Assembly: GCF_000189295.2 (NCBI RefSeq) | Contig: NC_016803.1 | Location: forward strand, 2,010,001-2,042,000 | Direction: 5' to 3' | Origin: Pseudodesulfovibrio mercurii | GTDB taxonomy: Bacteria; Desulfobacterota; Desulfovibrionia; Desulfovibrionales; Desulfovibrionaceae | Length of the DNA: 32,000 nucleotides | Shown here: positions 9,773 through 18,167 of the stretch, piece after piece | Layout of the letters: each line of letters starts with the position of its first letter | Numbering within the stretch: the stretch's first letter is position 1 | Made by a program: the position numbers and the translations under genes | The notes under the pieces: generated by a model | What the model saw: only the letters and a program-made list of their open reading frames with translations | Told to the model about the DNA's origin: nothing | Databases searched by the model: none

Positions 9773-11704
9773 ATGCGAGCAGACAACCCCAAGAGAAAAC
9801 GGCCTCTCCTGACCAGCAGGTCCATCTCGCGGGACCTGACCTTCAGCCTGGTGGTCATCGTCATGATCATCGCCACGGCCCTCGGCGGGTTCATCTACTG
9901 GCAGCAGTCCCAGGAGATGTGGGCCACGGCCGAGAAAAAGGGCGAGGACACCATCTCCTCGGTGGCCGAAATCCTGGCCGTGCCCATCTGGAACCTGGAC
10001 TACGACAACGCCCGGCTCATCGGCTCGGTCTACACCCACGACGACATGGTCCAGGGCATCCGCATCTACGGCTCGCGCAACGAGGTGGTCTTCGCCCACG
10101 AGAAGTTCTCGGGCACGCCCGCGGACTTCAGCCAGGTCCGGCCCATCGTCTTCGAGGGCCGCACCATCGGCCGGGCCGAGATCGACTTCACCCTGGAGCG
10201 CGAGAAGAAGCGCCTGGACGAACAGATGTTCGTCTCGATCATCATCATCGTGGTCTCCATCTCCGTCATCCTGGCCATCACCGGCCTGCTCCTGCGCGTC
10301 TTCCTGAACAAGCCGCTCATGGTCCTCCAGTCCGGCATCGCCCGCGTGGCCAAAGGCGACTTCTCCTACGACTTCGGCGAGGTCTACCACGCGGAACTGC
10401 TGGAGATCGCCAAGCGATTCCGGCGCATGTCCATCGAGATCGAGGGCCGCGAGAACAAGCTCCAGACCATGAACAAGACCCTCCAGGAAGCGGAGGAGAA
10501 ATACCGGTCCATCTTCGAGAACGCCATCGAGGGCATCTTCCAGGCCACCCCGGACGGCGTGCTTCGCCGGGCCAACCCGGCCATGGCCCGCATCTTCGGC
10601 TACGACTCCCTGGACGAGTTCCTGTCCAACGTCCGCTCCCTGAGCTCCCGGATCATGGTCAACCCGGACCACATGCAAGGGTTCTTCGACCGCGTGCGCG
10701 ACCAGGGCGAGGTCAAGCGGTTCGAGGCCGAGTACTACCGCCGCGACGGCAAGACCATCTGGGGCTCCCTCAACGCCCGGGCCATCCACGACGAGCGGGG
10801 CAACTTCGTGTTCGTGGACGGCATCCTCGAGGACATCACCGACCGCAAGAAGGCCGAGCAGGACCTGGCCGACCTGAACCGCCACCTGGAACAGTTGGTC
10901 CGCGAGCGCACCGAGGACCTGGTCAACAAGGCCCGCGAGCTGGAGGAGGCCAACCAGCGGCTGCGCGAACTGGACGAGATGAAGTCCGCCTTCCTCTCCT
11001 CGGTCTCCCACGAGCTGCGCACACCCCTGACCTCCATCCTGGGCTTCGCCAAACTCCTGAACAAGGAGTTCACGCGCAACTTCCTGCCCCTGGTCAGCCC
11101 GGAAGGCGCCCTGGCGCGCAAGGGCAAGCGCATCCGCGAGAACCTGGCCATCATCAGCCACGAGGGCGAACGGTTGACCCGGCTGATCAACGACGTCCTC
11201 GACCTGAACAAGATCGAGTCCGGCTCCATGGGCTGGCGCGACGAGGAGCTGGACATGAACGAGGTCATCGAGGTGGCCGCCAGTTCGGTCTCGGGCATGT
11301 TCGCCCAGACCACCCTGGAGCTGCGCACCGAGATCCAGCCGGGCCTGCCGCACATTGTGGCCGACCGCGACCGCATGCAGCAGGTGCTCATCAACCTGCT
11401 CAACAACGCCTCCAAGTTCACGGAAAAGGGCTCGGTCACCCTGCGCGCCTTCCCGCGCTTCAGCCAGCTGCGCGTGGAGGTGGTGGACACCGGCACCGGC
11501 ATCCACCCCGAGGACCAGTCCCAGATCTTCGAGAAGTTCCACCAGACCCACACCGACGACACCATGGTCAACAAGCCCAAGGGCACCGGCCTGGGCCTGA
11601 CCATCTGCCGCGAGATCATCGAGCACTACGGCGGCCGCATCTGGGTCGAGTCCGAAGTCGGCGTAGGCTCCACCTTCATATTTACTTTGCCTGCGATGCA
11701 ATAA
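9773..11704 (+). CDS. Sensor histidine kinase (2 TM, HAMP, PAS/PAC, HisKA, HATPase_c)
   Basis: I take the start at ATG 9773. There are two TM segments. The HAMP is LNKPLMVLQSGIARVAKGDF, the PAS is YRSIFENAIEGIFQATPDG.., the H-box is FLSSVSHELRTPLTSI, and the N/G boxes are LINLLNNASKFT and GTGLGLTICREIIEHYGGRIWVES. Confidence 0.92.
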   Translation: MRADNPKRKRPLLTSRSISRDLTFSLVVIVMIIATALGGFIYWQQSQEMWATAEKKGEDTISSVAEILAVPIWNLDYDNARLIGSVYTHDDMVQGIRIYGSRNEVVFAHEKFSGTPADFSQVRPIVFEGRTIGRAEIDFTLEREKKRLDEQMFVSIIIIVVSISVILAITGLLLRVFLNKPLMVLQSGIARVAKGDFSYDFGEVYHAELLEIAKRFRRMSIEIEGRENKLQTMNKTLQEAEEKYRSIFENAIEGIFQATPDGVLRRANPAMARIFGYDSLDEFLSNVRSLSSRIMVNPDHMQGFFDRVRDQGEVKRFEAEYYRRDGKTIWGSLNARAIHDERGNFVFVDGILEDITDRKKAEQDLADLNRHLEQLVRERTEDLVNKARELEEANQRLRELDEMKSAFLSSVSHELRTPLTSILGFAKLLNKEFTRNFLPLVSPEGALARKGKRIRENLAIISHEGERLTRLINDVLDLNKIESGSMGWRDEELDMNEVIEVAASSVSGMFAQTTLELRTEIQPGLPHIVADRDRMQQVLINLLNNASKFTEKGSVTLRAFPRFSQLRVEVVDTGTGIHPEDQSQIFEKFHQTHTDDTMVNKPKGTGLGLTICREIIEHYGGRIWVESEVGVGSTFIFTLPAMQ

Positions 11705-11731
11705 GCGGCTTCCGATAGCGGCGCATCTGCA

Positions 11732-11799
11732 CATTTTTTCCGGCCGGGCCAATCCTCACGTAGACGGCTACGCTGCGGTTGGCCCGACCGGAAAAAATG
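11732..11799. repeat. Long imperfect hairpin / inverted repeat downstream of the kinase gene
   Basis: 11732-11752 (cattttttccggccgggccaa) pairs with 11779-11799 (ttggcccgaccggaaaaaatg), 21 bp with one mismatch. The 26-nt loop contains a 5-bp sub-stem (cgtag/ctacg). Confidence 0.8.
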
Positions 11800-11977
11800 C
11801 ACAGCTACACCACTCTCGACAAATCCGCAGGACAGCGGATTTGGACGTTGCGGTCTTTCCGCAACGCCCCGAAGGGGTGAGCCCCAGGACGGGGCGAATC
11901 AAAGCCTAGTGCGCGCACGGGAGAGAGAGCCGCTGTCGGGTGCTGCGCACCCGAATCGCTCCAAAGAGGTAAGACAG

Positions 11978-12015
11978 GGCCTTCGACTCTATGTTGAGTC
12001 GGAGGCCTTTTTGTT
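11978..12015 (+). terminator. Strong rho-independent terminator with no obvious upstream gene
   Basis: GGCCTTCGACTC-tatgtt-GAGTCGGAGGCC forms a 12 bp stem with one G.U pair, followed by TTTTTGTT. The nearest upstream plus-strand CDS ends 270 nt earlier. Confidence 0.7.
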
Positions 12016-12219
12016 GGGGGTGCCCACCCCGCGAAGCTGCGACAAAAAGCTTGAAGGGGGTCCAGGGGGCATCCCCGCATCCTGTCAAGTTGCTTTTTTA
12101 TGCTTATCGGGCGCTTTTGGGCGTCATTCTTCAACAAAACAGGGTGTTGGCGAAAACCGGGGGTATGCTGGTTCGGATTCCCGGGGATGGGCCTCGGGGA
12201 CGAAGCCAGAGAGGTTGCC

Positions 12220-13590
12220 ATGGCAGCACCGTATATGTGTGAGACGAGGCGCGGCCCGGACGGGCGCATTGTGGAGAAAACCGAGACCGTCAGGGGGCGG
12301 AAGTCCGTCTGGGCCTACGCCTATGACGGGGACGGACGGCTGACCGAGGCCAAACTGGACGGGCGGGTCATCTGCCAGTGCTGGTACGACCGGGAGGGCC
12401 GCCGGGTGCGGGACTATCTGCCCGCCACGGCCGGGGCGAATTATCGGGATTACCAGTATACTCAGGACAACCGGCTGATGCGCGCCGGGTCCGGGCAGTA
12501 TTCCCACGACGAGCGCGGCTTCCGGTCCATCTGGTCGGACAGGGGCGTGTACACCCTGTACGAGTACAGCCCGGACTACCGGCTGCTCAAGGCCGAGGAG
12601 GAGGGCCGGAACAAGGCCTTGACCTTTGACCACGACGATGACGGGCGGCGCTCGGCCAAGTACCTGAACGGGCAGTTGGTCGAGGCCTACCGGTGGCTCG
12701 ACTTCGTGCGTCTGGCCGCGTTCCACGACGGGCGGCACGGTTACGAGTTCGCCTACCGCGAGGGCGAGCGCACGCCCTACGCCATGCGCCGGGACGACGG
12801 GACCGTGGCCGGGCTCTTATATGACCAGGTCGGCTCCCTGCGCGTGGTTGCCGACGTGGACGGAAACGTGATAAAGGAGGTCCTGTACGATCCCTTCGGC
12901 GGGATCATCGAGGACACCAACCCGAGCCTGCGCCTGCCCATCGGCTTCGCGGGCGGCCTCCACGACCGGGACCTGGGGTTCGTCCGCTTCGGCTGGCGCG
13001 ACTATGACGTCAGGACCGGCCGCTGGACCGCGCCCGACCCCATCGGGGACAAGGGCGGCGACCCGGACTGGTACGGGTATTGTCTGGACGACCCGGTGAA
13101 CATGCATGACCCCATGGGGTTGTTTGCTTGGATCCCGCTGGCAGGAGCCGCGATTGGTGCAGGCTCCAATGCCTATGACAATTGGGATGATTGGAGAAGC
13201 GGCAAGATGAGCACAGGCGACTATGCCACATCCGTTGGCCTGGGAGCTGTAACCGGCGCAGTGAGCACCATGGGCGGGGGTATAGGTTCAACCCTTCTGC
13301 TTGGTGGCGGCTCTGCCGCCTTGAACGAAGTTGGGAACCAGTACATCAGGACAGGCAAAGTCGATGATGTTGGGAAAGTTGCTGCAGCTGCTGGGAGCGG
13401 AGTAATCGGAGGGGCTGCCGGGAAGATCGGCAAGAGCGTCGGAAAGAACTTCGGCAGGATTACACCTTCCATGACGATCCCCCCCAAACCCCTCAAGGAT
13501 GCGAGCAATCTTGGAAGTGTTGTGAGTTCAACTGTCGGCACGGAGATGACTGACGACTGGCTCAACAAGGCTTTGGACAAGCAAAAATAA
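12220..13590 (+). CDS. Short Rhs/YD-repeat protein: YD repeats + RHS core tip (DPxGL) + glycine-zipper C-terminal (toxin-like) domain
   Basis: I take the start at ATG 12220, with GAGAGG 5 nt upstream. YD repeats are YAYDGDGRLTEA, WYDREGRRV, YQYTQDNRLMRA and FDHDDDGRRSAK. The core tip is GFAGGLHDRDLGFVRFGWRDYDVRTGRWTAPDPIGDKGGDPDWYGYCLDDPVNMHDPMGL and ends at 13122. The tail 13123-13587 is rich in GxxxG (GAAIGAG, GLGAVTGAVSTMGGGIGSTLLLGGG, GSGVIGGAAGKIG). Confidence 0.85.
   Translation: MAAPYMCETRRGPDGRIVEKTETVRGRKSVWAYAYDGDGRLTEAKLDGRVICQCWYDREGRRVRDYLPATAGANYRDYQYTQDNRLMRAGSGQYSHDERGFRSIWSDRGVYTLYEYSPDYRLLKAEEEGRNKALTFDHDDDGRRSAKYLNGQLVEAYRWLDFVRLAAFHDGRHGYEFAYREGERTPYAMRRDDGTVAGLLYDQVGSLRVVADVDGNVIKEVLYDPFGGIIEDTNPSLRLPIGFAGGLHDRDLGFVRFGWRDYDVRTGRWTAPDPIGDKGGDPDWYGYCLDDPVNMHDPMGLFAWIPLAGAAIGAGSNAYDNWDDWRSGKMSTGDYATSVGLGAVTGAVSTMGGGIGSTLLLGGGSAALNEVGNQYIRTGKVDDVGKVAAAAGSGVIGGAAGKIGKSVGKNFGRITPSMTIPPKPLKDASNLGSVVSSTVGTEMTDDWLNKALDKQK
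12912..13101 (+). repeat. Core-tip direct repeat, copy 1 (inside the main Rhs gene)
   Basis: 190 bp, roughly 96 percent identical by eye to 13902-14091. Its distal 162 bp match 14771-14932. Confidence 0.9.
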
Positions 13591-13598
13591 GGAAAGTG

Positions 13599-13826
13599 AT
13601 GTTAGGCATTGTCTTCATGTTTGTTGCAGGTGCAGTATGCATCATTGGCGGGTTATTTTTGATCCGAGAATGGTACTATACCCGGCATACAGACCTTCGC
13701 CCATTTTCATGGAAACGTTGGTTCAACAGAGATGAAGGGCTGAACCCCCTTGAAAAGCTTGTCAACGGAATAATAGGTATAATCATTGGTGCATTTGCGA
13801 CGTTGATCTTCCTGTCTTCCTTGTAG
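13599..13826 (+). CDS. Small 2-TM membrane protein, putative immunity protein for the preceding C-terminal domain
   Basis: 75 aa (ATG 13599; a GTG lies at 13596), starting 9 nt after the Rhs stop. TM1 is GIVFMFVAGAVCIIGGLFLI and TM2 is LVNGIIGIIIGAFATLIFLSSL. G+C is markedly lower than the surroundings. The function is inferred from position only. Confidence 0.55.
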   Translation: MLGIVFMFVAGAVCIIGGLFLIREWYYTRHTDLRPFSWKRWFNRDEGLNPLEKLVNGIIGIIIGAFATLIFLSSL

Positions 13827-13836
13827 ACTCACCGAT

Positions 13837-13874
13837 ACGCCCGAGGAAAAAGCCTCGGGCGTGTTTGATTTGTT
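13837..13874 (+). terminator. Rho-independent terminator closing cassette 1
   Basis: ACGCCCGAGG-aaaaag-CCTCGGGCGT followed by GTTTGATTTGTT. Confidence 0.7.
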
Positions 13875-14520
13875 GTGGCGAGTGTCGGGCGGAATTTTAG
13901 CGGACACCAACCCGAGCCTGCGCCTGCCCCTCGGCTTTGCGGGCGGCCTGCACGACCGGGACCTGGGCTTCGTCCGCTTCGGCTGGCGCGACTATGACGT
14001 CAGGACCGGCCGCTGGACCGCGCCCGACCCTATCGGCGACAAGGGCGGCGACCCGGACTGGTACGGGTATTGTCTGGACGACCCGGTGAACGGGGTTGAT
14101 CCGGCGGGGTTGGAAGGCGGGTTTTGGGATGGGGTCAAGAAAATCGGAGCGGGCTTCGGCAAGCTGTGGGACAAGGCCCCGGCCGGTATCGGTGAGGCCG
14201 TTACCAAGGGCGTGAAGGGGGCTGGCAAGGCATTGAGCAAAACGGCGGACGCCTTTGCCACCAACAAGGATTTGCAAAAATATACGGCGATCGCCTTAGG
14301 TGCGGGGGCTCTCCCCATCGTGGCGGCGACAGGCTCGGCAGTGGTGCCGGCGGCCATCGGAGCCGCCATGCAGCACCCGGACACGCTCGCAACCATGTCA
14401 AAAGCGACTGTCGATTTTGCGAATGGATACTTCGACGAAGGCCCGCCGCCGCCTTCCTGGCCCGGCTATCTCGGAGGGCTACTCGGAAAAGCGAAAGATA
14501 TCCACAAGAAAAAGAAGTGA
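13861..14520 (+). CDS. Orphan Rhs core-tip fragment fused to alternative C-terminal domain (CT2); probably not independently translated
   Basis: The frame reads ..DTNPSLRLPLGFAGGLHDRDLGFVRFGWRDYDVRTGRWTAPDPIGDKGGDPDWYGYCLDDPVNGVDPAGL, then a 135-aa Gly/Ala/Lys-rich tail (14113-14517) with the hydrophobic stretch YTAIALGAGALPIVAATGSAVVPAAIGAAM. The only start is GTG 13861, which lies inside the T-tract of the preceding terminator and has no RBS. Confidence 0.7.
   Translation: MFDLLWRVSGGILADTNPSLRLPLGFAGGLHDRDLGFVRFGWRDYDVRTGRWTAPDPIGDKGGDPDWYGYCLDDPVNGVDPAGLEGGFWDGVKKIGAGFGKLWDKAPAGIGEAVTKGVKGAGKALSKTADAFATNKDLQKYTAIALGAGALPIVAATGSAVVPAAIGAAMQHPDTLATMSKATVDFANGYFDEGPPPPSWPGYLGGLLGKAKDIHKKKK
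13902..14091 (+). repeat. Core-tip direct repeat, copy 2
   Basis: It aligns base for base with 12912-13101 at an offset of 990, with about 7 mismatches. Confidence 0.9.
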
Positions 14521-14522
14521 TT

Positions 14523-14720
14523 ATGAGAGTAAAACCGGTGGAAATGGTGCTGAGTGCCGCGATGATAGTAACAAGCCTGCTGAGCATAACGAATGATTAT
14601 TCCTACTTTAAGGGATTTCCCGTATACTCCTGGGTTGAATACATTATTCTGGGGGGAGGTGTGTTGATCCCCGTCCTGGCTTGGTTCCTCCGGTCACCAA
14701 CTCGGAATAAACAAAAATAA
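14523..14720 (+). CDS. Small 2-TM membrane protein, putative immunity protein for CT2
   Basis: 65 aa from ATG 14523, 2 nt after the CT2 stop (the track uses GTG 14517). It reads MRVKPVEMVLSAAMIVTSLLSI...WVEYIILGGGVLIPVLAWFLRSP. It is a paralogue of the ORF at 15352-15555, sharing the MRVK start and the P.LAW(F/Y)LR.P motif. Confidence 0.55.
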   Translation: MRVKPVEMVLSAAMIVTSLLSITNDYSYFKGFPVYSWVEYIILGGGVLIPVLAWFLRSPTRNKQK

Positions 14721-14726
14721 CGGTAG

Positions 14727-14764
14727 GAAACGCCCTGGGAACCATATTTCCAGGGCGTTTCTTC
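14727..14764 (+). terminator. Stem-loop / weak terminator closing cassette 2
   Basis: GAAACGCCCTGG-gaaccatattt-CCAGGGCGTTTC forms a 12 bp stem followed by TTC. The T-tract is only partial. Confidence 0.5.
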
Positions 14765-14770
14765 ACCCCT

Positions 14771-14932
14771 ATCGGCTTCGCGGGCGGCCTGCACGACCGG
14801 GACCTGGGCTTCGTCCGCTTCGGCTGGCGGGATTACGACGTCAGGACCGGCAAATGGTCCGCGCCGGACCCCATCGGGGACAAGGGCGGCGACCCGGACT
14901 GGTACGGGTATTGTCTGGACGACCCGGTGAAC
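14771..14932 (+). repeat. Core-tip direct repeat, copy 3 (5'-shortened)
   Basis: 162 bp matching 12940-13101 and 13930-14091. Similarity to cassette 2 continues to 15222 (cassette 2 coordinate 14381). Confidence 0.9.
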
Positions 14933-15355
14933 GGGGTTGATCCGGCGGGGTTGGAAGGCGGATTTTGGGATGGCGTGAAGAAAATCGAAGCGGGCTTCGG
15001 CAAGCTGTGGGACAAGGCCCCGGCCGGTATCGGTGAGGCCGTTACCAAGGGCGTGAAGGGGGCTGGCAAGGCATTGAGCAAAACGGCGGACGCCTTTGCC
15101 ACCAACAAGGATTTGCAAAAATATACGGCGATCGCCTTAGGTGCGGGGGCTCTCCCCATCGTGGCGGCGACAGGCTCGGCAGTGGTGCCGGCGGCCATCG
15201 GAGCCGCCATGCAGCATCCGGAAAGATTGGCTGTCGCGTCCAAGGCGGCAACTGATTTTGCAACCGGAGCGTTCGACCCAGGGCCTCCGCCGATGACCAA
15301 GGCGGGTATAGCCGGATACGCCGTGAACAAGGCCTATGAGTGGAGTAAACAATGA
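14771..15355 (+). CDS. Second orphan Rhs core-tip fragment fused to CT3 (chimeric relative of CT2); no start codon upstream of the homology
   Basis: The frame is open from 14711 with no ATG or GTG before IGFAGGLHDRDLGFVRFGWRDYDVRTGKWSAPDPIGDKGGDPDWYGYCLDDPVNGVDPAGL. The tail is 14954-15352. The track's start at 14927 is the Val codon of DPVNG. Confidence 0.7.
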   Translation: MGFAGGLHDRDLGFVRFGWRDYDVRTGKWSAPDPIGDKGGDPDWYGYCLDDPVNGVDPAGLEGGFWDGVKKIEAGFGKLWDKAPAGIGEAVTKGVKGAGKALSKTADAFATNKDLQKYTAIALGAGALPIVAATGSAVVPAAIGAAMQHPERLAVASKAATDFATGAFDPGPPPMTKAGIAGYAVNKAYEWSKQ

Positions 15356-15555
15356 GAGTGAAATTGTCTGAAATTCTGTTGGGGGAATTGCTTGTCGGAG
15401 TCGGTGCGTTGGAAATAGGCGCAGGCAAGGCTGGTGTATATGGCTACCCCCAACCCTTGTGGACGGCCTATCTCCTTGTCGCCATCGGCGTCGCACTCCC
15501 TTTGGTTGCTTGGTATTTGCGGCGGCCGCAGAAAGATGAGGACCAGACGGTTTAA
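15352..15555 (+). CDS. Small 2-TM membrane protein, putative immunity protein for CT3
   Basis: 67 aa. Its ATG overlaps the CT3 stop (ATGA). It reads MRVKLSEILLGELLVGVGALEIGAG...LWTAYLLVAIGVALPLVAWYLRRP. Confidence 0.55.
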   Translation: MRVKLSEILLGELLVGVGALEIGAGKAGVYGYPQPLWTAYLLVAIGVALPLVAWYLRRPQKDEDQTV

Positions 15556-15637: not shown

Positions 15638-15677
15638 AAAAAACAACGCCCCCGTCCCGATGATTCGGGGCGGGGGC
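15638..15677 (-). terminator. Rho-independent terminator of rng
   Basis: The minus strand reads GCCCCCGCCCCG-aatcat-CGGGACGGGGGC followed by GTTGTTTTTTC, 25 nt after the rng stop. Confidence 0.7.
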
Positions 15678-15700: not shown

Positions 15701-17167
15701 CTACTCGTCGTATTCGTACTCGATGTCGATGTGGATGGTCTTTTCGTAGCGCTTTTCCAGGTCCGCGAGGATGCCGCGCTTGTTGTTCAGCAGGTAGATG
15801 GCCAGTTCCTCCTCGCAGTCGTACTGGACCTCGTCGGAGCCGGGCTTGCGCAGGTCGCGGTGGATGTCCTTGAGGGCCTGGAGGGCCTGCCATTCCATGT
15901 TCCGGCGGATGCCCGTGCCCTTGCAGCAGGGGCAGGGCTCGGTGGAGATGGCGATGGCCGAGGAGCCCAGCCGCTGGCGGACCAGCTCCATGAGCCCGAA
16001 GGAGGAGATGCGCGAGACGTCGGTCCGGGCGCGGTCGTTCTTCATTTCCGCGCGCATGACCTTCTCCACCTCGCGGCAGTCCTTGGGGTTCTTCATCTCG
16101 ATGAAGTCGATGACCACCTGGCCGCCGATGTCGCGCAGCCGCAGCTGGCGGGCGATCTCGCGGGCGGCCTCCACGTTGGTCTTGAGCGCCATCTTCTGGA
16201 AATTCTTCTCGCCGCCGATCTTGCCGGAGTTGATGTCCACGGCGGTCAGGGCCTCGGTGGCGTCGAAGACCAGCCGCCCGCCCGAGGGCATGGACGCCTC
16301 GCGGGAGTAGATCTCCTCCACCTGCTTGACCAGGTTGAACCGCTCCAGCAGGGACAGCTCGTTGTCCTCGTGCAGCCGGACCAGGTTGTTCTTGCGCGGG
16401 AAGGCCAGCTTGACGAACTGGTGGACCTGCTCATAGGTCTCCTTGTCGTCCACCCAGATCTCGGTGATGTCCAGGGTCAGGTAGTCGCGCACGGCCCGGG
16501 CGGCCAGGCCGAGCTCCTGGTAGACCGGCGCCGGGGCCTTGACCTTCTGGGCGTTGGCCCGGATGTCGGTCCACAGCCGGTTCAGGTACTTGAAGTCGCG
16601 CTCCAGGGCGGCCTTGGACTGGCCCACGGCCGCGGTGCGGGCGATGAGCCCCACGCCCTCGGCGGTCTCGAACCCCTCCAGGGCGGTCTTGAGGCGATCC
16701 CGCTCCTTCTCGTCCTCGATCTTGCGCGAGACCCCGATCTGGCTGCGGCCCACGGTGTAGACGAAGCAGCGGCCGGGCAGGGAGAGGTAGGAGGTCAGGA
16801 ACGCGCCCTTCTTGCCTGTGGGTTCCTTGACCACCTGGACCAGGACCTCCTGGCCGGGCTTGAGCACCTTCTGCATGAGCGGGAAGCGCTGGCCCTTCTT
16901 GGTGGGCACCTCGTTGATGTAGTATTCGGGGTGGACCTCGTCGATCTGCAGAAAGCCGTTGCGCTCGGCCCCGTAGTTGATGAACGCGGCCTGCAACCCG
17001 TTGTCGATGTTGTGGATGTAGCCCTTGTAGATGTTGCCCTTGGTCTTGGCCTGGTGGACCATCTCAACGTAATACTCGTTGACCTTGCCCTCCTCGGCGA
17101 TGACGACCTCGACCTGTTCTCCCGGCAGCACGGAGATGAACATCTTCTGCCGTTTCTTCTTGGTCAT
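15701..17167 (-). CDS. rng: Ribonuclease G (RNase E/G family)
   Basis: I take the start at the internal ATG (comp. 17165-17167), giving MTKKKRQKMFISVLPGEQVEVVIAEEG... The S1 domain is GNIYKGYIHNIDNGLQAAFINYGAERNGFL and the catalytic region is ..AVDINSGK...IGGQVVIDFIEM... At 488 aa it fits Rng rather than Rne. Confidence 0.9.
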   Translation of the reverse strand: MTKKKRQKMFISVLPGEQVEVVIAEEGKVNEYYVEMVHQAKTKGNIYKGYIHNIDNGLQAAFINYGAERNGFLQIDEVHPEYYINEVPTKKGQRFPLMQKVLKPGQEVLVQVVKEPTGKKGAFLTSYLSLPGRCFVYTVGRSQIGVSRKIEDEKERDRLKTALEGFETAEGVGLIARTAAVGQSKAALERDFKYLNRLWTDIRANAQKVKAPAPVYQELGLAARAVRDYLTLDITEIWVDDKETYEQVHQFVKLAFPRKNNLVRLHEDNELSLLERFNLVKQVEEIYSREASMPSGGRLVFDATEALTAVDINSGKIGGEKNFQKMALKTNVEAAREIARQLRLRDIGGQVVIDFIEMKNPKDCREVEKVMRAEMKNDRARTDVSRISSFGLMELVRQRLGSSAIAISTEPCPCCKGTGIRRNMEWQALQALKDIHRDLRKPGSDEVQYDCEEELAIYLLNNKRGILADLEKRYEKTIHIDIEYEYDE

Positions 17168-17213
17168 GGAAACCTCTTGACGAGAAATGTGTGCGTCTGA
17201 TCCCGGCGCGCCC

Positions 17214-18167
17214 TCAGTCTTCGATGACATGGCCCGTTCCGTGGTAAAATGTCTCCCCCCGGTCATCCCGGCGGGTCACTTCGCCCATTTTTTCGAGGGC
17301 TTCCACGGCCTGGCGAACCCTCTCGAGGTCCGCGCCCAGGGCCTGGGCCAGCTGTTCGGCGGTCTGGGGCCTGCGGCTCAGGGAGGCGGTCACGGCAGCG
17401 GTCATCCGCTCCAGGCTCATCTCCTTGCCCGCATGGGCCCGCCGCCCGTCCGGGCGGGTCTCCCCGCCTCCGAGCGCCAGGCGCCAACGGCTTAAAACCT
17501 CCCCGTCCACGGGGCGGACCCCCTTGACCGTGCCGGGACGGGTCAGCGTGACCACGTCCACCCGGTCGGGGGCAAGCCGTTGGCAGAAAATCCGTAGCCT
17601 GCCGAGGTTCTCGTCGGAATCGTTAATTCCTTCGGCAAGCAAAATTTCCAAAAATATCTTTCCCTTGAATTCATTCCTGAAGGCAAGGAGCCCGTCGGCC
17701 ACGGCCTCGGGCGTGATGGCCTCGTCCGGCCGGTTCACCCTGGTGAATTCCTCGGGCACCAGGGAGTCCATGCTGGGCAGGACCACGTCGGCGGCGCACA
17801 GTTCGCGCCGCACCTCGGGGTCGGTCATCAGGCTGGCGTTGGTCAGCACGGCCACGGGGATCCCCGGAAAGAGCGCCTTGGCCCCGAGGATGATCCGCTC
17901 CATGTCCGCGTTCAGGCACGGTTCGCCCAGGCCGCCGAGGGTGATCATGTCCGGCGGCTCCAGCCCTTCCTCCTTCCACTGGGACAGTTCCCGGAGGATG
18001 TCGGCCGCCGGAACGTAGACCCTGCGCTCGCAGGTCCGGTTCCTGGTGGCGCCCACCTCGCAGTAGACGCAGTCCATGGAACAGATGCGGTCGCCGAGCA
18101 GGTCGAGTCCGAGGGAGCGGCCGAGCCGCCCGCTCATGACCGGGCCGAAGACGTATTTGTATGCCAT
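17214..18167 (-). CDS. Radical SAM protein with C-terminal winged-helix-like domain
   Basis: The start is taken at MAYKYVFGPVMSGRLGRSLG. CSMDCVYC is the CX3CX2C cluster motif. The tail is ..TAEQLAQALGADLERVRQAVEALEKMGEV. The longer track start at 18260 is possible but has no better signal. Confidence 0.8.
   Translation of the reverse strand: MAYKYVFGPVMSGRLGRSLGLDLLGDRICSMDCVYCEVGATRNRTCERRVYVPAADILRELSQWKEEGLEPPDMITLGGLGEPCLNADMERIILGAKALFPGIPVAVLTNASLMTDPEVRRELCAADVVLPSMDSLVPEEFTRVNRPDEAITPEAVADGLLAFRNEFKGKIFLEILLAEGINDSDENLGRLRIFCQRLAPDRVDVVTLTRPGTVKGVRPVDGEVLSRWRLALGGGETRPDGRRAHAGKEMSLERMTAAVTASLSRRPQTAEQLAQALGADLERVRQAVEALEKMGEVTRRDDRGETFYHGTGHVIED

Follow-up and report, generated by a model that had tools for sequence, protein, structure and literature searches.

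In the sulphate reducer Pseudodesulfovibrio mercurii, a window of 32,000 nucleotides (nt; NC_016803.1, 2,010,001-2,042,000) holds, between its positions 12220 and 15555, a group of small genes that we understand as a polymorphic toxin and immunity island of the Rhs/teneurin-like YD-repeat superfamily. All coordinates refer to this window, and L and P codes stand for loci and proteins fetched from relatives. Sequence comparison and analogy with characterised systems lead us to give a probability of about 0.72 to a reading in which a short head gene, here termed mini-Rhs, encodes a protein that would cleave itself to release a toxin tail, and in which the cassettes lying downstream would have been displaced from it. 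The locus has the marks of an Rhs/YD polymorphic toxin: a YD beta-sheet shell, a core ending in PxxxxDPxGL, and a polymorphic tail followed by a gene of the cognate type, putatively for immunity. Its orphan-array architecture is already known; the mini-Rhs head family and the two toxin/immunity families associated with it are an uncharacterised variant, and of these the mini-Rhs family is the more unusual part of the locus.

An earlier interpretation of the same DNA, made from its letters without database searches (the sequence-only reading), had proposed an Rhs main gene followed by orphan modules of C-terminal tail and immunity gene in a sulphate-reducing host. The host was rightly guessed, and core matches, autoprotease residues and the linkage of tails with small open reading frames (ORFs) in relatives support the proposal. 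Those of its refuting conditions that could be put to the test all turned out in its favour. What that reading overlooked is that cassettes 2 and 3 belong to one toxin/immunity family, as a pair that has diverged, and that the short Rhs gene is part of a large conserved family.

A short shell and a complete Rhs core

The 456-residue product of the head gene is identical to the database entry "YD repeat protein [Pseudodesulfovibrio mercurii]", and the coordinates that had been given for an ORF with YD repeats and an Rhs core up to DPMGL, a tail of some 155 amino acids (aa) and a tiny ORF with two transmembrane segments (2-TM) proved accurate (Table 1). Against PF25023, TEN_YD-shell, the head ORF reaches E 1.3e-20, above the 50-bit cut-off, over profile positions 624-866 of 909; with PF05593 and TIGR01643 its scores fall just under the cut-offs. 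In the AlphaFold2 (AF2) model, residues 1-255 make about 24 beta-strands, the confidence score pLDDT (predicted local distance difference test) being mostly 82-97 for residues 1-80 and 130-240 but 53-75 in the stretch 81-120. Searched with Foldseek, this shell model retrieves the last part of teneurin YD shells at E 5e-19, with a root-mean-square deviation of 3.0 A over some 279 columns. Over teneurin, Rhs and TcC shells together the values range from 5e-19 to 1e-8, the Rhs proteins of type VI secretion systems (T6SS) and TcC superposing less well than teneurin. Using phmmer, head residues 15-301 align with residues 1866-2144 of BiTLP, the teneurin-like protein (TLP) of Bacillus inaquosorum (E 1e-37), and the core resembles that of BiTLP at E 1.5e-21 as against 6e-7 to 0.5 for T6SS Rhs proteins. 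These matches and the model make mini-Rhs the final layer, out of three, in a teneurin-like cocoon, plus the core plug; its probable ancestor is a long orphan that acquired a start of its own.

The Rhs core model, a search that the sequence-only reading had itself suggested, matches all three copies in the island above its curated cut-off of 32.5 bits: TIGR03696 (Rhs_assc_core) covers copy 1 at full length, 1-76 of 76, with E 6e-18, and reaches 3e-16 in copy 2 and 2e-14 in copy 3. The motifs DDPVNMHDPMGL (head core, ending at 13122) and DDPVNGVDPAGL stand at the PxxxxDPxGL end. When the core is aligned with BiTLP 2069-2145, the predicted autoprotease residues R260, D273 and D297 fall on R2103, D2116 and D2140, to which the BiTLP report assigns the autoprotease roles (PMC13018210). 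The three columns are invariant in 67 family members, and the residues are kept in all three copies of the window.

A genus-wide family of short head genes

A database search returns hundreds of proteins, 340-480 aa long, from Pseudodesulfovibrio and its relatives in the Desulfovibrionaceae; over roughly their first 300 aa they are 52-89% identical to the head protein, and their C-termini are mutually unrelated. In the fetched loci, 37 full-length genes share both the start residue and the N-terminus M..PY....R.G.DGRIVEKTE, whereas the downstream fragments are truncated at scattered points of shell or core; such start-less copies are found in 18 of the 30 loci that hold a full-length gene. The genome of D. 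caledoniensis has at least eight mini-Rhs loci, and P. thermohalotolerans has three intact mini-Rhs genes in tandem. Ratios of non-synonymous to synonymous divergence (dN/dS) of 0.12-0.41 in nine comparisons indicate purifying selection on the shell. No full-length gene with this core was seen in the Pseudodesulfovibrio genomes scanned, a set from which the P. mercurii genome itself was missing. In Desulfobacterales, Syntrophobacterales, Omnitrophota and further groups and phyla, homologues that are 35-40% identical occur as ORFs of 2000-2500 aa, in which the region makes up the C-terminal 300 aa or so; some of these teneurin-like genes have truncated copies downstream.

Among the in-frame starts of the head gene, ATG 12220 has the best Shine-Dalgarno (SD) sequence, with a duplex energy of -7.2 kcal/mol as compared with -0.2 for ATG 12100. 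The latter was considered as a start and rejected: it has no SD, it lies inside a conserved non-coding leader, and the homologues begin at the residue equivalent to 12220. This leader region of about 140 nt precedes full-length genes only, and nothing resembling it stands 5' of either orphan. It comprises, in order, CTGTCAAG (12082-12089), CGAAAACCGGGGGTATGCT (12151-12169), a hairpin (12178-12200), CGAA(A/G)C and the SD GAGAGG. Its identity is 93% over 142 nt to the D. caledoniensis and P. karagichevae copies and 75-86% over about 55 nt in remoter paralogues, and it is also present in L003, L005, L006, L007 and L040, upstream of position 10001 (or 9512). The hairpin, just 5' of the SD, has eight pairs, three of them with compensatory changes. 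The leader matches no Rfam family; it could act as a regulatory RNA or as a protein-binding site. A sigma-70 or sigma-54 promoter, read by eye in its blocks, was dropped, as the spacings do not fit. Because the start residue is common to the family, the shell is under purifying selection and the leader is conserved with full-length genes, the head gene can be initiated, and it reads as a complete member of a genus-wide mini-Rhs family and not as a stump peculiar to this locus.

Some members of the family bear tails with known domains (P0039, P0088, P0025, P0069 and P0055), for example PF22322, PF00277, or PF03734 together with PF10908, which we take to be a YkuD-type L,D-transpeptidase and Tlde1. 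The short shell therefore serves enzymatic toxins too, and not only Gly-rich peptides. In P. nedwellii (L078, 11901-15021) the neighbours of a mini-Rhs gene are phage genes, for a head-tail connector and for Bbp19, and genes for a resolvase and a Bro-N protein lie upstream, so that at least one copy lies within or beside a prophage.

Tails, small ORFs and start-less cassettes

In tail 1, Gly makes up 18% of the residues, small-xxx-small-xxx-small motifs number 12, and the N-terminus is hydrophobic (FAWIPLAGAAIGAG). Tails 2 and 3 (133-135 aa) are rich in Ala, Gly and Lys and have a hydrophobic stretch of 30 residues at 58-87. Both tail families are small, and they occur solely on mini-Rhs genes or orphans of Desulfovibrionaceae. 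A single superfamily of all three tails was considered and rejected, tail 1 giving an hhalign probability of 0.2% with tails 2/3. That neither tails nor small ORFs resembled any recognised family had been remarked from the sequence, and indeed they find no match in Pfam or NCBIfam (E up to 1), PADLOC or the PDB, the PDB profile search with the tail alignment matching only through the 56 core positions included in that alignment. In an exhaustive profile search 13,136 Rhs proteins were drawn in by the core positions, and the tail itself is matched by no more than about 35 clusters, all unannotated and 80-550 aa in length. The AF2 model of tail 2 is all-helical with pLDDT 54, and Foldseek returned nothing for it below E 3.9, so that we conclude nothing about its fold; no characterised membrane toxin was matched by the tails, in sequence or in fold. 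Their composition, their 2-TM partners and the analogy with the C-terminal domain (CTD) of BiTLP are the grounds on which we regard the Gly/Ala-rich tails as probably membrane-active peptides.

The small ORFs are real genes. In all relatives examined, cognate small ORFs lie directly downstream of matching tails: homologues of imm1 (43-78% identity) stand directly 3' of tail-1-type tails in L004, L022 and L033, and ORFs of the imm2/3 family directly 3' of every tail-2/3-type tail examined. In imm1 the hydrophobic segments span residues 1-26 and 51-75, and its SD gives a duplex of -6.2 kcal/mol. The product of imm3 is 31% identical to that of imm2 (E 2e-13) and 84-86% identical to ORFs in L016 and L081.

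As to the downstream copies, the sequence-only reading was right that the core tip recurs twice (at 13888 and 14768) and wrong, for one of them, about its extent of 55-65 codons, which is about 75 in copy 2 and 62 in copy 3. The first of these cores (225 nt) is 92% identical to 12898-13122 (tblastn 3e-45), the second (186 nt) 90% identical to the head core (tblastn 2e-37). Each is fused in frame to a tail followed by a 2-TM ORF, as had been claimed, with the junctions TGAttATG and ATGA found at 14518-14525 and 15352-15355. The tails, which had been taken for different ones, are homologous in cassettes 2 and 3, with 81% aa identity: their first 88 codons differ at five bases, and they diverge sharply after about 14376/15217. 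Copy 2 does lack a believable start, though the GTG in the T-tract of the preceding terminator (GTG 13861) is not the sole candidate that it had been held to be, for TTG 13870, TTG 13873 and GTG 13882 also precede the homology; none has a usable SD outside the hairpin. The statement that copy 3 has no ATG or GTG before the homology can be extended, TTG being absent as well from the in-frame stop 14708-14710 to GTG 14927. A stem-loop follows every cassette, yet it is not in each case the cassette's own terminator: a clear T-tract on the plus strand is present in the first hairpin only, and the third has its T-run on the minus strand, so that it also terminates the convergent RNase E/G gene. Nor are these copies housekeeping genes conserved in all relatives; they are variable modules of low G+C (0.44-0.61).

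Exchange of cassettes between loci

Shells that are 85-89% identical to the head shell bear unrelated tails, and tail 1 occurs on shells only 66-81% identical; this mismatch means that the phylogenies of shell and tail are uncoupled. The comparison of relatives, which the sequence-only reading had recommended, revealed the same tails on full-length genes. In a metagenomic relative (L079/P0014), a full-length mini-Rhs with a shell 87% identical to the head shell carries a tail 79% identical to tail 2, and the next ORF is 85% identical to imm2; the module predicted to be silent as cassette 2 of the window is thus the head cassette there, and as such presumably expressed. The tail-2/3 family is also borne by P0021, P0030, P0045, P0057, P0080 and P0092. 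Cassette 3 recurs, 94.5% identical in nt and again as an orphan, in the metagenome contig L081. Between cassettes 2 and 3, a tract of 264 nt with five differences abuts 75 nt in which the proportions of synonymous and non-synonymous differences are 0.60 and 0.28 (pS and pN), an abrupt change that marks a recombination breakpoint. The downstream copies combine a core fragment in frame with another tail and immunity gene, the lack of promoter and start from which silence is predicted, the occurrence of the same module on a full-length gene elsewhere, and mosaic breakpoints. It is comparative evidence of this kind that supports the putative toxin-switching archive, and it matches the C-terminal displacement model of enterobacterial rhs (PMC2935791).

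Within the tail-2/3 family the first 75-88 aa or so are nearly constant and the last 45-60 or so variable. Immunity divergence correlates with that of the C-part of the tail (rho 0.38) and not with that of the N-part (rho 0.03), which is suggestive only of a joint variation of C-part and immunity protein. Two further observations concern this family. At 686-880 of L081 there is a chimeric immunity gene, of imm3 type through ...PLVAW and then with an imm2-type C-terminus (LRSPTRNKQK) and a hairpin of the cassette-2 type. A fourth module, P0132 (128 aa, 67-76% identical, with a different C-terminal part), lies elsewhere in the P. mercurii genome.

It might be held that the downstream cassettes are chiefly an immunity island, their 2-TM genes being expressed against the toxins of neighbours while the toxin parts are decaying leftovers, never reused. 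We regard this as possible, at odds well below even. All three small ORFs are unbroken, SD-like sequences are present for imm1 and imm3, and toxin-less orphan immunity genes are on record from other Rhs systems (PMC5727410); in L016 (15117-15774), three consecutive 2-TM ORFs of the imm2/3 family without toxin parts, an immunity-only array, follow a mini-Rhs locus that has several orphans. Decay is not what the toxin frames display, however, for they are open to their natural stops and keep the catalytic residues, the differences among the core copies are enriched for synonymous sites (dS 0.18-0.26 as against dN 0.03-0.07), and the same tails are in use on full-length genes elsewhere. The roles of archive and of immunity store are moreover not exclusive.

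That the orphans are not silent, and give free-standing small toxins from internal near-cognate starts (GTG 13861 in copy 2; GTG 14927, TTG 14951 or GTG 14975 in copy 3), strikes us as unlikely. GTG 14975 has an SD-like AAGGCGGA on its 5' side (-6.8 kcal/mol), gene callers begin several homologues at exactly the equivalent residue (MKKIGAG...), public annotation has a copy 2 gene starting at GTG 13861 (P0121), and expressed orphans have been reported in Snodgrassella alvi (PMC5727410). But GTG 13861 and its SD-like GAGG are buried in a hairpin of -25 kcal/mol, the SD-like sequence of GTG 14975 stands too far off, at about 12 nt, and the codon of copy 2 equivalent to GTG 14975 is GTC. Neither copy has a promoter or leader, a strong hairpin lies 5' of each, and the choices of gene callers are no evidence for translation.

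A proposed mechanism and the points against it

We picture the island, under our preferred reading of head gene and displaced cassettes, as working in the following way. The head gene would be transcribed from its own conserved promoter and leader, and the aspartyl autoprotease of the core would cut after DPMGL (L301), freeing a Gly-rich tail that would harm a cell membrane, the 2-TM product of imm1 neutralising tail 1 in the producer's own membrane. Incoming modules of tail, immunity gene and terminator would have recombined at the conserved core, displacing older modules downstream; there they retain 62-75 core codons, with neither leader nor SD nor start, so that their toxin is most likely silent, and their immunity genes may still guard against neighbours that hold that toxin. 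Were the head core to undergo homologous recombination with that of an orphan, 990 bp (core 2) or 1831 bp (core 3) would be lost and tail 2 or tail 3 would come under the head gene.

Several points weigh against this account. A complete three-layer closed cocoon would take some 700 to more than 1000 residues, while here the shell spans only residues 1 to about 255 and the protein opens directly with YD repeats. A shell of about 255 aa is too small to enclose a tail of 155 aa, and in canonical Rhs proteins it is enclosure that renders the toxin harmless and fit for delivery; in the AF2 model the core and tail of the head protein stand at pLDDT below 50, in keeping with the notion that they find no room in a third of a shell. 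The head protein consists of YD shell and core before its tail, with no signal peptide-like segment and no PAAR, VgrG-binding or adhesin domain found, and no secretion genes were found in the 32-kb window or within 10 kb in L001, L002, L077, L078, L079 and L080, so that delivery to a target is unsupported; the PAAR, VgrG-binding or clade domain of a T6SS effector, or linkage to vgrG, chaperone or T6SS genes, was likewise not found there. The hairpins between the cassettes may hinder transcription of the orphan immunity genes. In tail 1 no 19-residue window exceeds the hydrophobicity threshold, the membrane activity of the tails is read from composition alone, and the covariation statistic comes from only eight related cassettes. 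Toxicity, autoproteolysis, immunity and the silence of the orphans are all predictions from sequence.

It is tempting, and quite tentative, to go further and see in the 456-aa protein an autonomous class of 'single-layer' YD-shell toxin, a third of a teneurin-like cocoon with an Rhs autoprotease, devoid of a closed container and of known trafficking domains. Several copies might then build a closed shell, some 24 strands taken three times making roughly one cocoon; or else the shell piece could be a self-cleaving, solubilising pro-domain for small membrane-active peptides that leave by a route other than T6SS. Such a family would go back to a long orphan, belonging to a giant teneurin-like locus, which gained a promoter and a start of its own.

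The absence of an export signal and of a linked secretion system also invites the thought that the pairs of mini-Rhs and immunity gene act within the producer, as addiction modules, or in abortive infection or another defence through a released membrane-active peptide, and not as interbacterial weapons. A predicted self-cleaving toxin paired with a membrane antidote, in multi-copy, mobile-looking and insulated modules of which one sits beside phage genes (L078), would suit such a role. We nevertheless find it improbable: none of the PADLOC defence models is matched, hypervariable tails accompanied by orphan arrays are the mark of conflict between cells, and the closest characterised relative, BiTLP, is toxic only from outside the cytoplasmic membrane (PMC13018210). 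Least probable of all is that the whole locus is the eroded 3' end of a former full-length teneurin-like locus, the 456-aa ORF being a long orphan with a chance ATG and no working toxin system, for if the 2000-2500-aa homologues (the region at their C-terminal end, some with truncated copies behind), the classing of short Rhs proteins as orphans in published surveys (bioRxiv 10.1101/2024.02.26.582050) and the inability of a third of a shell to encapsulate a tail all lean that way, they are confronted by 37 genes from many species and loci with a common Met start, SD and conserved leader, by selection on the shell, by intact tandem copies (up to three in a locus) and multiple loci in one genome, and by the want of a full-length partner in the genomes scanned.

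Comparison with known systems

Among known systems, one of the nearest is that of the enterobacterial rhs loci with orphan C-terminal/immunity modules of E. coli, Salmonella and Serratia (Jackson 2009, PMC2935791; Poole 2011, PMC3150448; Koskiniemi 2014), for which C-terminal displacement and orphan reactivation are established (PMC2935791; Koskiniemi 2014 as cited in PMC5727410). Common to both are a head ending in PxxxxDPxGL, a variable tail and then a small cognate gene, start-less downstream copies in which part of the core survives, with a separate tail and immunity gene for each, and uncoupled histories of shell and tail. The P. mercurii head differs in having a shell of about 255 aa instead of more than 1000, no N-terminus interacting with PAAR or VgrG and no T6SS linkage, and its core is far nearer to teneurin-like proteins than to T6SS Rhs.

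The closest solved relative is BiTLP (PDB 9IFO/9PT5; Raoelijaona et al. 2026, PMC13018210), a bacterial teneurin-like protein whose CTD is a hydrophobic peptide that permeabilises E. coli only if sent to the periplasm. Catalytic residues, a CTD of about 15 kDa and a downstream immunity gene are common to the two. TLPs, however, have 2000 aa or more: besides adhesin domains they possess an FN-plug and an NHL domain, and their CTD is concealed in a complete shell of three layers, of which the P. mercurii protein has only the last. It has neither the superfold of FN-plug, NHL and full YD-shell nor the N-terminal adhesin or secretion domains, and of the TLP shell and core it represents no more than the final 280 residues; we count it as related to the TLPs, not as one of them. 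Text searches of PMC13018210 met neither the word 'orphan' nor 'truncated', and no mini forms came up. Literature searches gave nothing on DND132 locus tags, a T6SS in Pseudodesulfovibrio, or polymorphic or Rhs toxins of Desulfovibrio.

Short forms have been met elsewhere, in Snodgrassella alvi behind full-length Rhs (Steele 2017, PMC5727410) and as 43 short Rhs proteins below 100 kDa in a survey of T6SS effectors (bioRxiv 10.1101/2024.02.26.582050). With these the P. mercurii protein has in common a partial YD domain, an intact core, a toxin, the lack of a trafficking domain, and an AF2 shell too small to envelop the effector. Yet they are read as orphans beside complete Rhs genes, whereas the short form here is a head gene with a conserved start and leader, under purifying selection, and no complete partner was found in the genomes of the genus that were scanned. 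A membrane-targeting tail is known from P. aeruginosa, where the Rhs toxin Tse5 is paired with the membrane immunity protein Tsi5. Like the tails described here, Tse5-CT (PMC9637101) is small, Gly/Ala-rich and partly hydrophobic, but there is no detectable similarity of sequence or fold.

In the accepted view, Rhs, Tc and teneurin proteins form closed cocoons in which a toxin stays hidden until it is delivered, and short Rhs genes have been written off as dead orphans. In the present case a genus of environmentally important, mercury-methylating sulphate reducers keeps dozens of genes for a third of a shell, with conserved starts and leaders, purifying selection and active exchange of cassettes, and apparently with no full-length gene alongside. 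If mini-Rhs is functional, encapsulation is not obligatory in the superfamily and there must be an unknown export route in Desulfovibrionaceae; if it is not, we have an ordinary Rhs orphan array in a new host. The locus also brings two uncharacterised toxin/immunity families, the split of tails 2/3 into a constant N-part and a variable C-part making a tractable model of specificity. While the archive will not surprise the specialist, how a third of a cocoon might work is the question of interest.

Setting and layout of the island

The island lies between a gene for a PAS histidine kinase on the plus strand, which ends at 11704, and a convergent gene on the minus strand (15701-17266) identified as RNase E/G by its Pfam match to RNase_E_G. 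Other genes of the window are housekeeping and signalling genes, for alanine dehydrogenase, a radical-SAM protein, a GGDEF protein and subunits of an NrfD/Fe-S membrane complex. The G+C content is 0.67-0.70 in shell and cores, 0.56-0.61 in the tails and 0.44-0.54 in the small ORFs, as compared with 0.64 in the flanking genes. No tRNA genes were found, and at gathering thresholds no Rfam family is present in the window, the upstream region giving only a match of chance level (E 0.96).

Table 1. Features of the mini-Rhs island in window coordinates
Feature	Position	Strand	Basis or remarks
Terminator-like hairpin with T-tract	11973..12012	+	Fold -33 kcal/mol; separates island from upstream histidine-kinase gene
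Conserved promoter/5' leader of mini-Rhs gene	12082..12219	+	Nt conservation upstream of head genes
Head gene, YD-repeat/Rhs, 456 aa	12220-13590	+	ORF; ATG 12220 start
Mini YD shell, residues 1-222, about 24 beta-strands; equivalent of the last third (one of three layers) of teneurin-like/Rhs cocoon	12220..12885	+	Profile, AF2, Foldseek, phmmer
Rhs-associated core, residues 223-301	12886..13122	+	TIGR03696; predicted cleavage between DPMGL and F, after 13122
Tail 1, predicted expressed C-terminal toxin domain, 155 aa	13123..13590	+	Composition; homologues
imm1, 75-aa 2-TM protein, presumed cognate immunity	13599..13826	+	AAGGAA SD; alternative start GTG 13596
Cassette 1 terminator hairpin with T-tract	13834..13865	+	-25 kcal/mol; GTG 13861 inside
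Orphan 2: 75 core codons (13888-14112) fused in frame to tail 2 (14113-14517, 135 aa; stop to 14520)	13888..14520	+	No leader, no credible start
imm2, 65-aa 2-TM protein	14523..14720	+	TGAttATG junction
Hairpin after cassette 2, poor T-tract	14722..14765	+	Inverted repeat; -31 kcal/mol; orphan 3 begins 3 nt later
Orphan 3: 62 core codons (14768-14953) fused to tail 3 (14954-15352, 133 aa)	14768..15355	+	First in-frame start codon GTG 14927
imm3, 67-aa 2-TM protein	15352..15555	+	ATGA overlap with tail 3 stop
Strong hairpin between imm3 and RNase E/G gene	15648..15677	.	T-run on minus strand

At the place equivalent to the first hairpin of the table, 5' of the leader, relatives have a different hairpin. 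Directly 3' of the histidine-kinase stop, an imperfect inverted repeat (11713-11818) with 51-nt arms, 75% complementary, a 4-nt spacer and A6/T6 runs resembles a terminator acting in both directions. Another short conserved block (GAGCCGCTGTCGGGTGCTGCGCACCCGAATCGCTCCA), at 11920-11966, is also found some 120-360 nt 5' of the mini-Rhs start in L006, L007, L012 and L040, and in L008 it abuts the alignment start. Between these two, at 11820-11901, lies a repeat element of about 82-85 nt, built of several short hairpins, copies of which occur in relatives (L030 10765-10846, L040 1535-1616, L027 11946-12027, L016 12859-12889). In three or four loci of relatives the element is inserted at one identical point of the coding sequence of the Rhs core, between the W-R-D and Y-D codons of GWRDYD, where it causes a +1 frameshift and truncates the gene. 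It may be an element resembling miniature inverted-repeat transposable elements with a site preference, or a single old insertion spread by recombination of the core.

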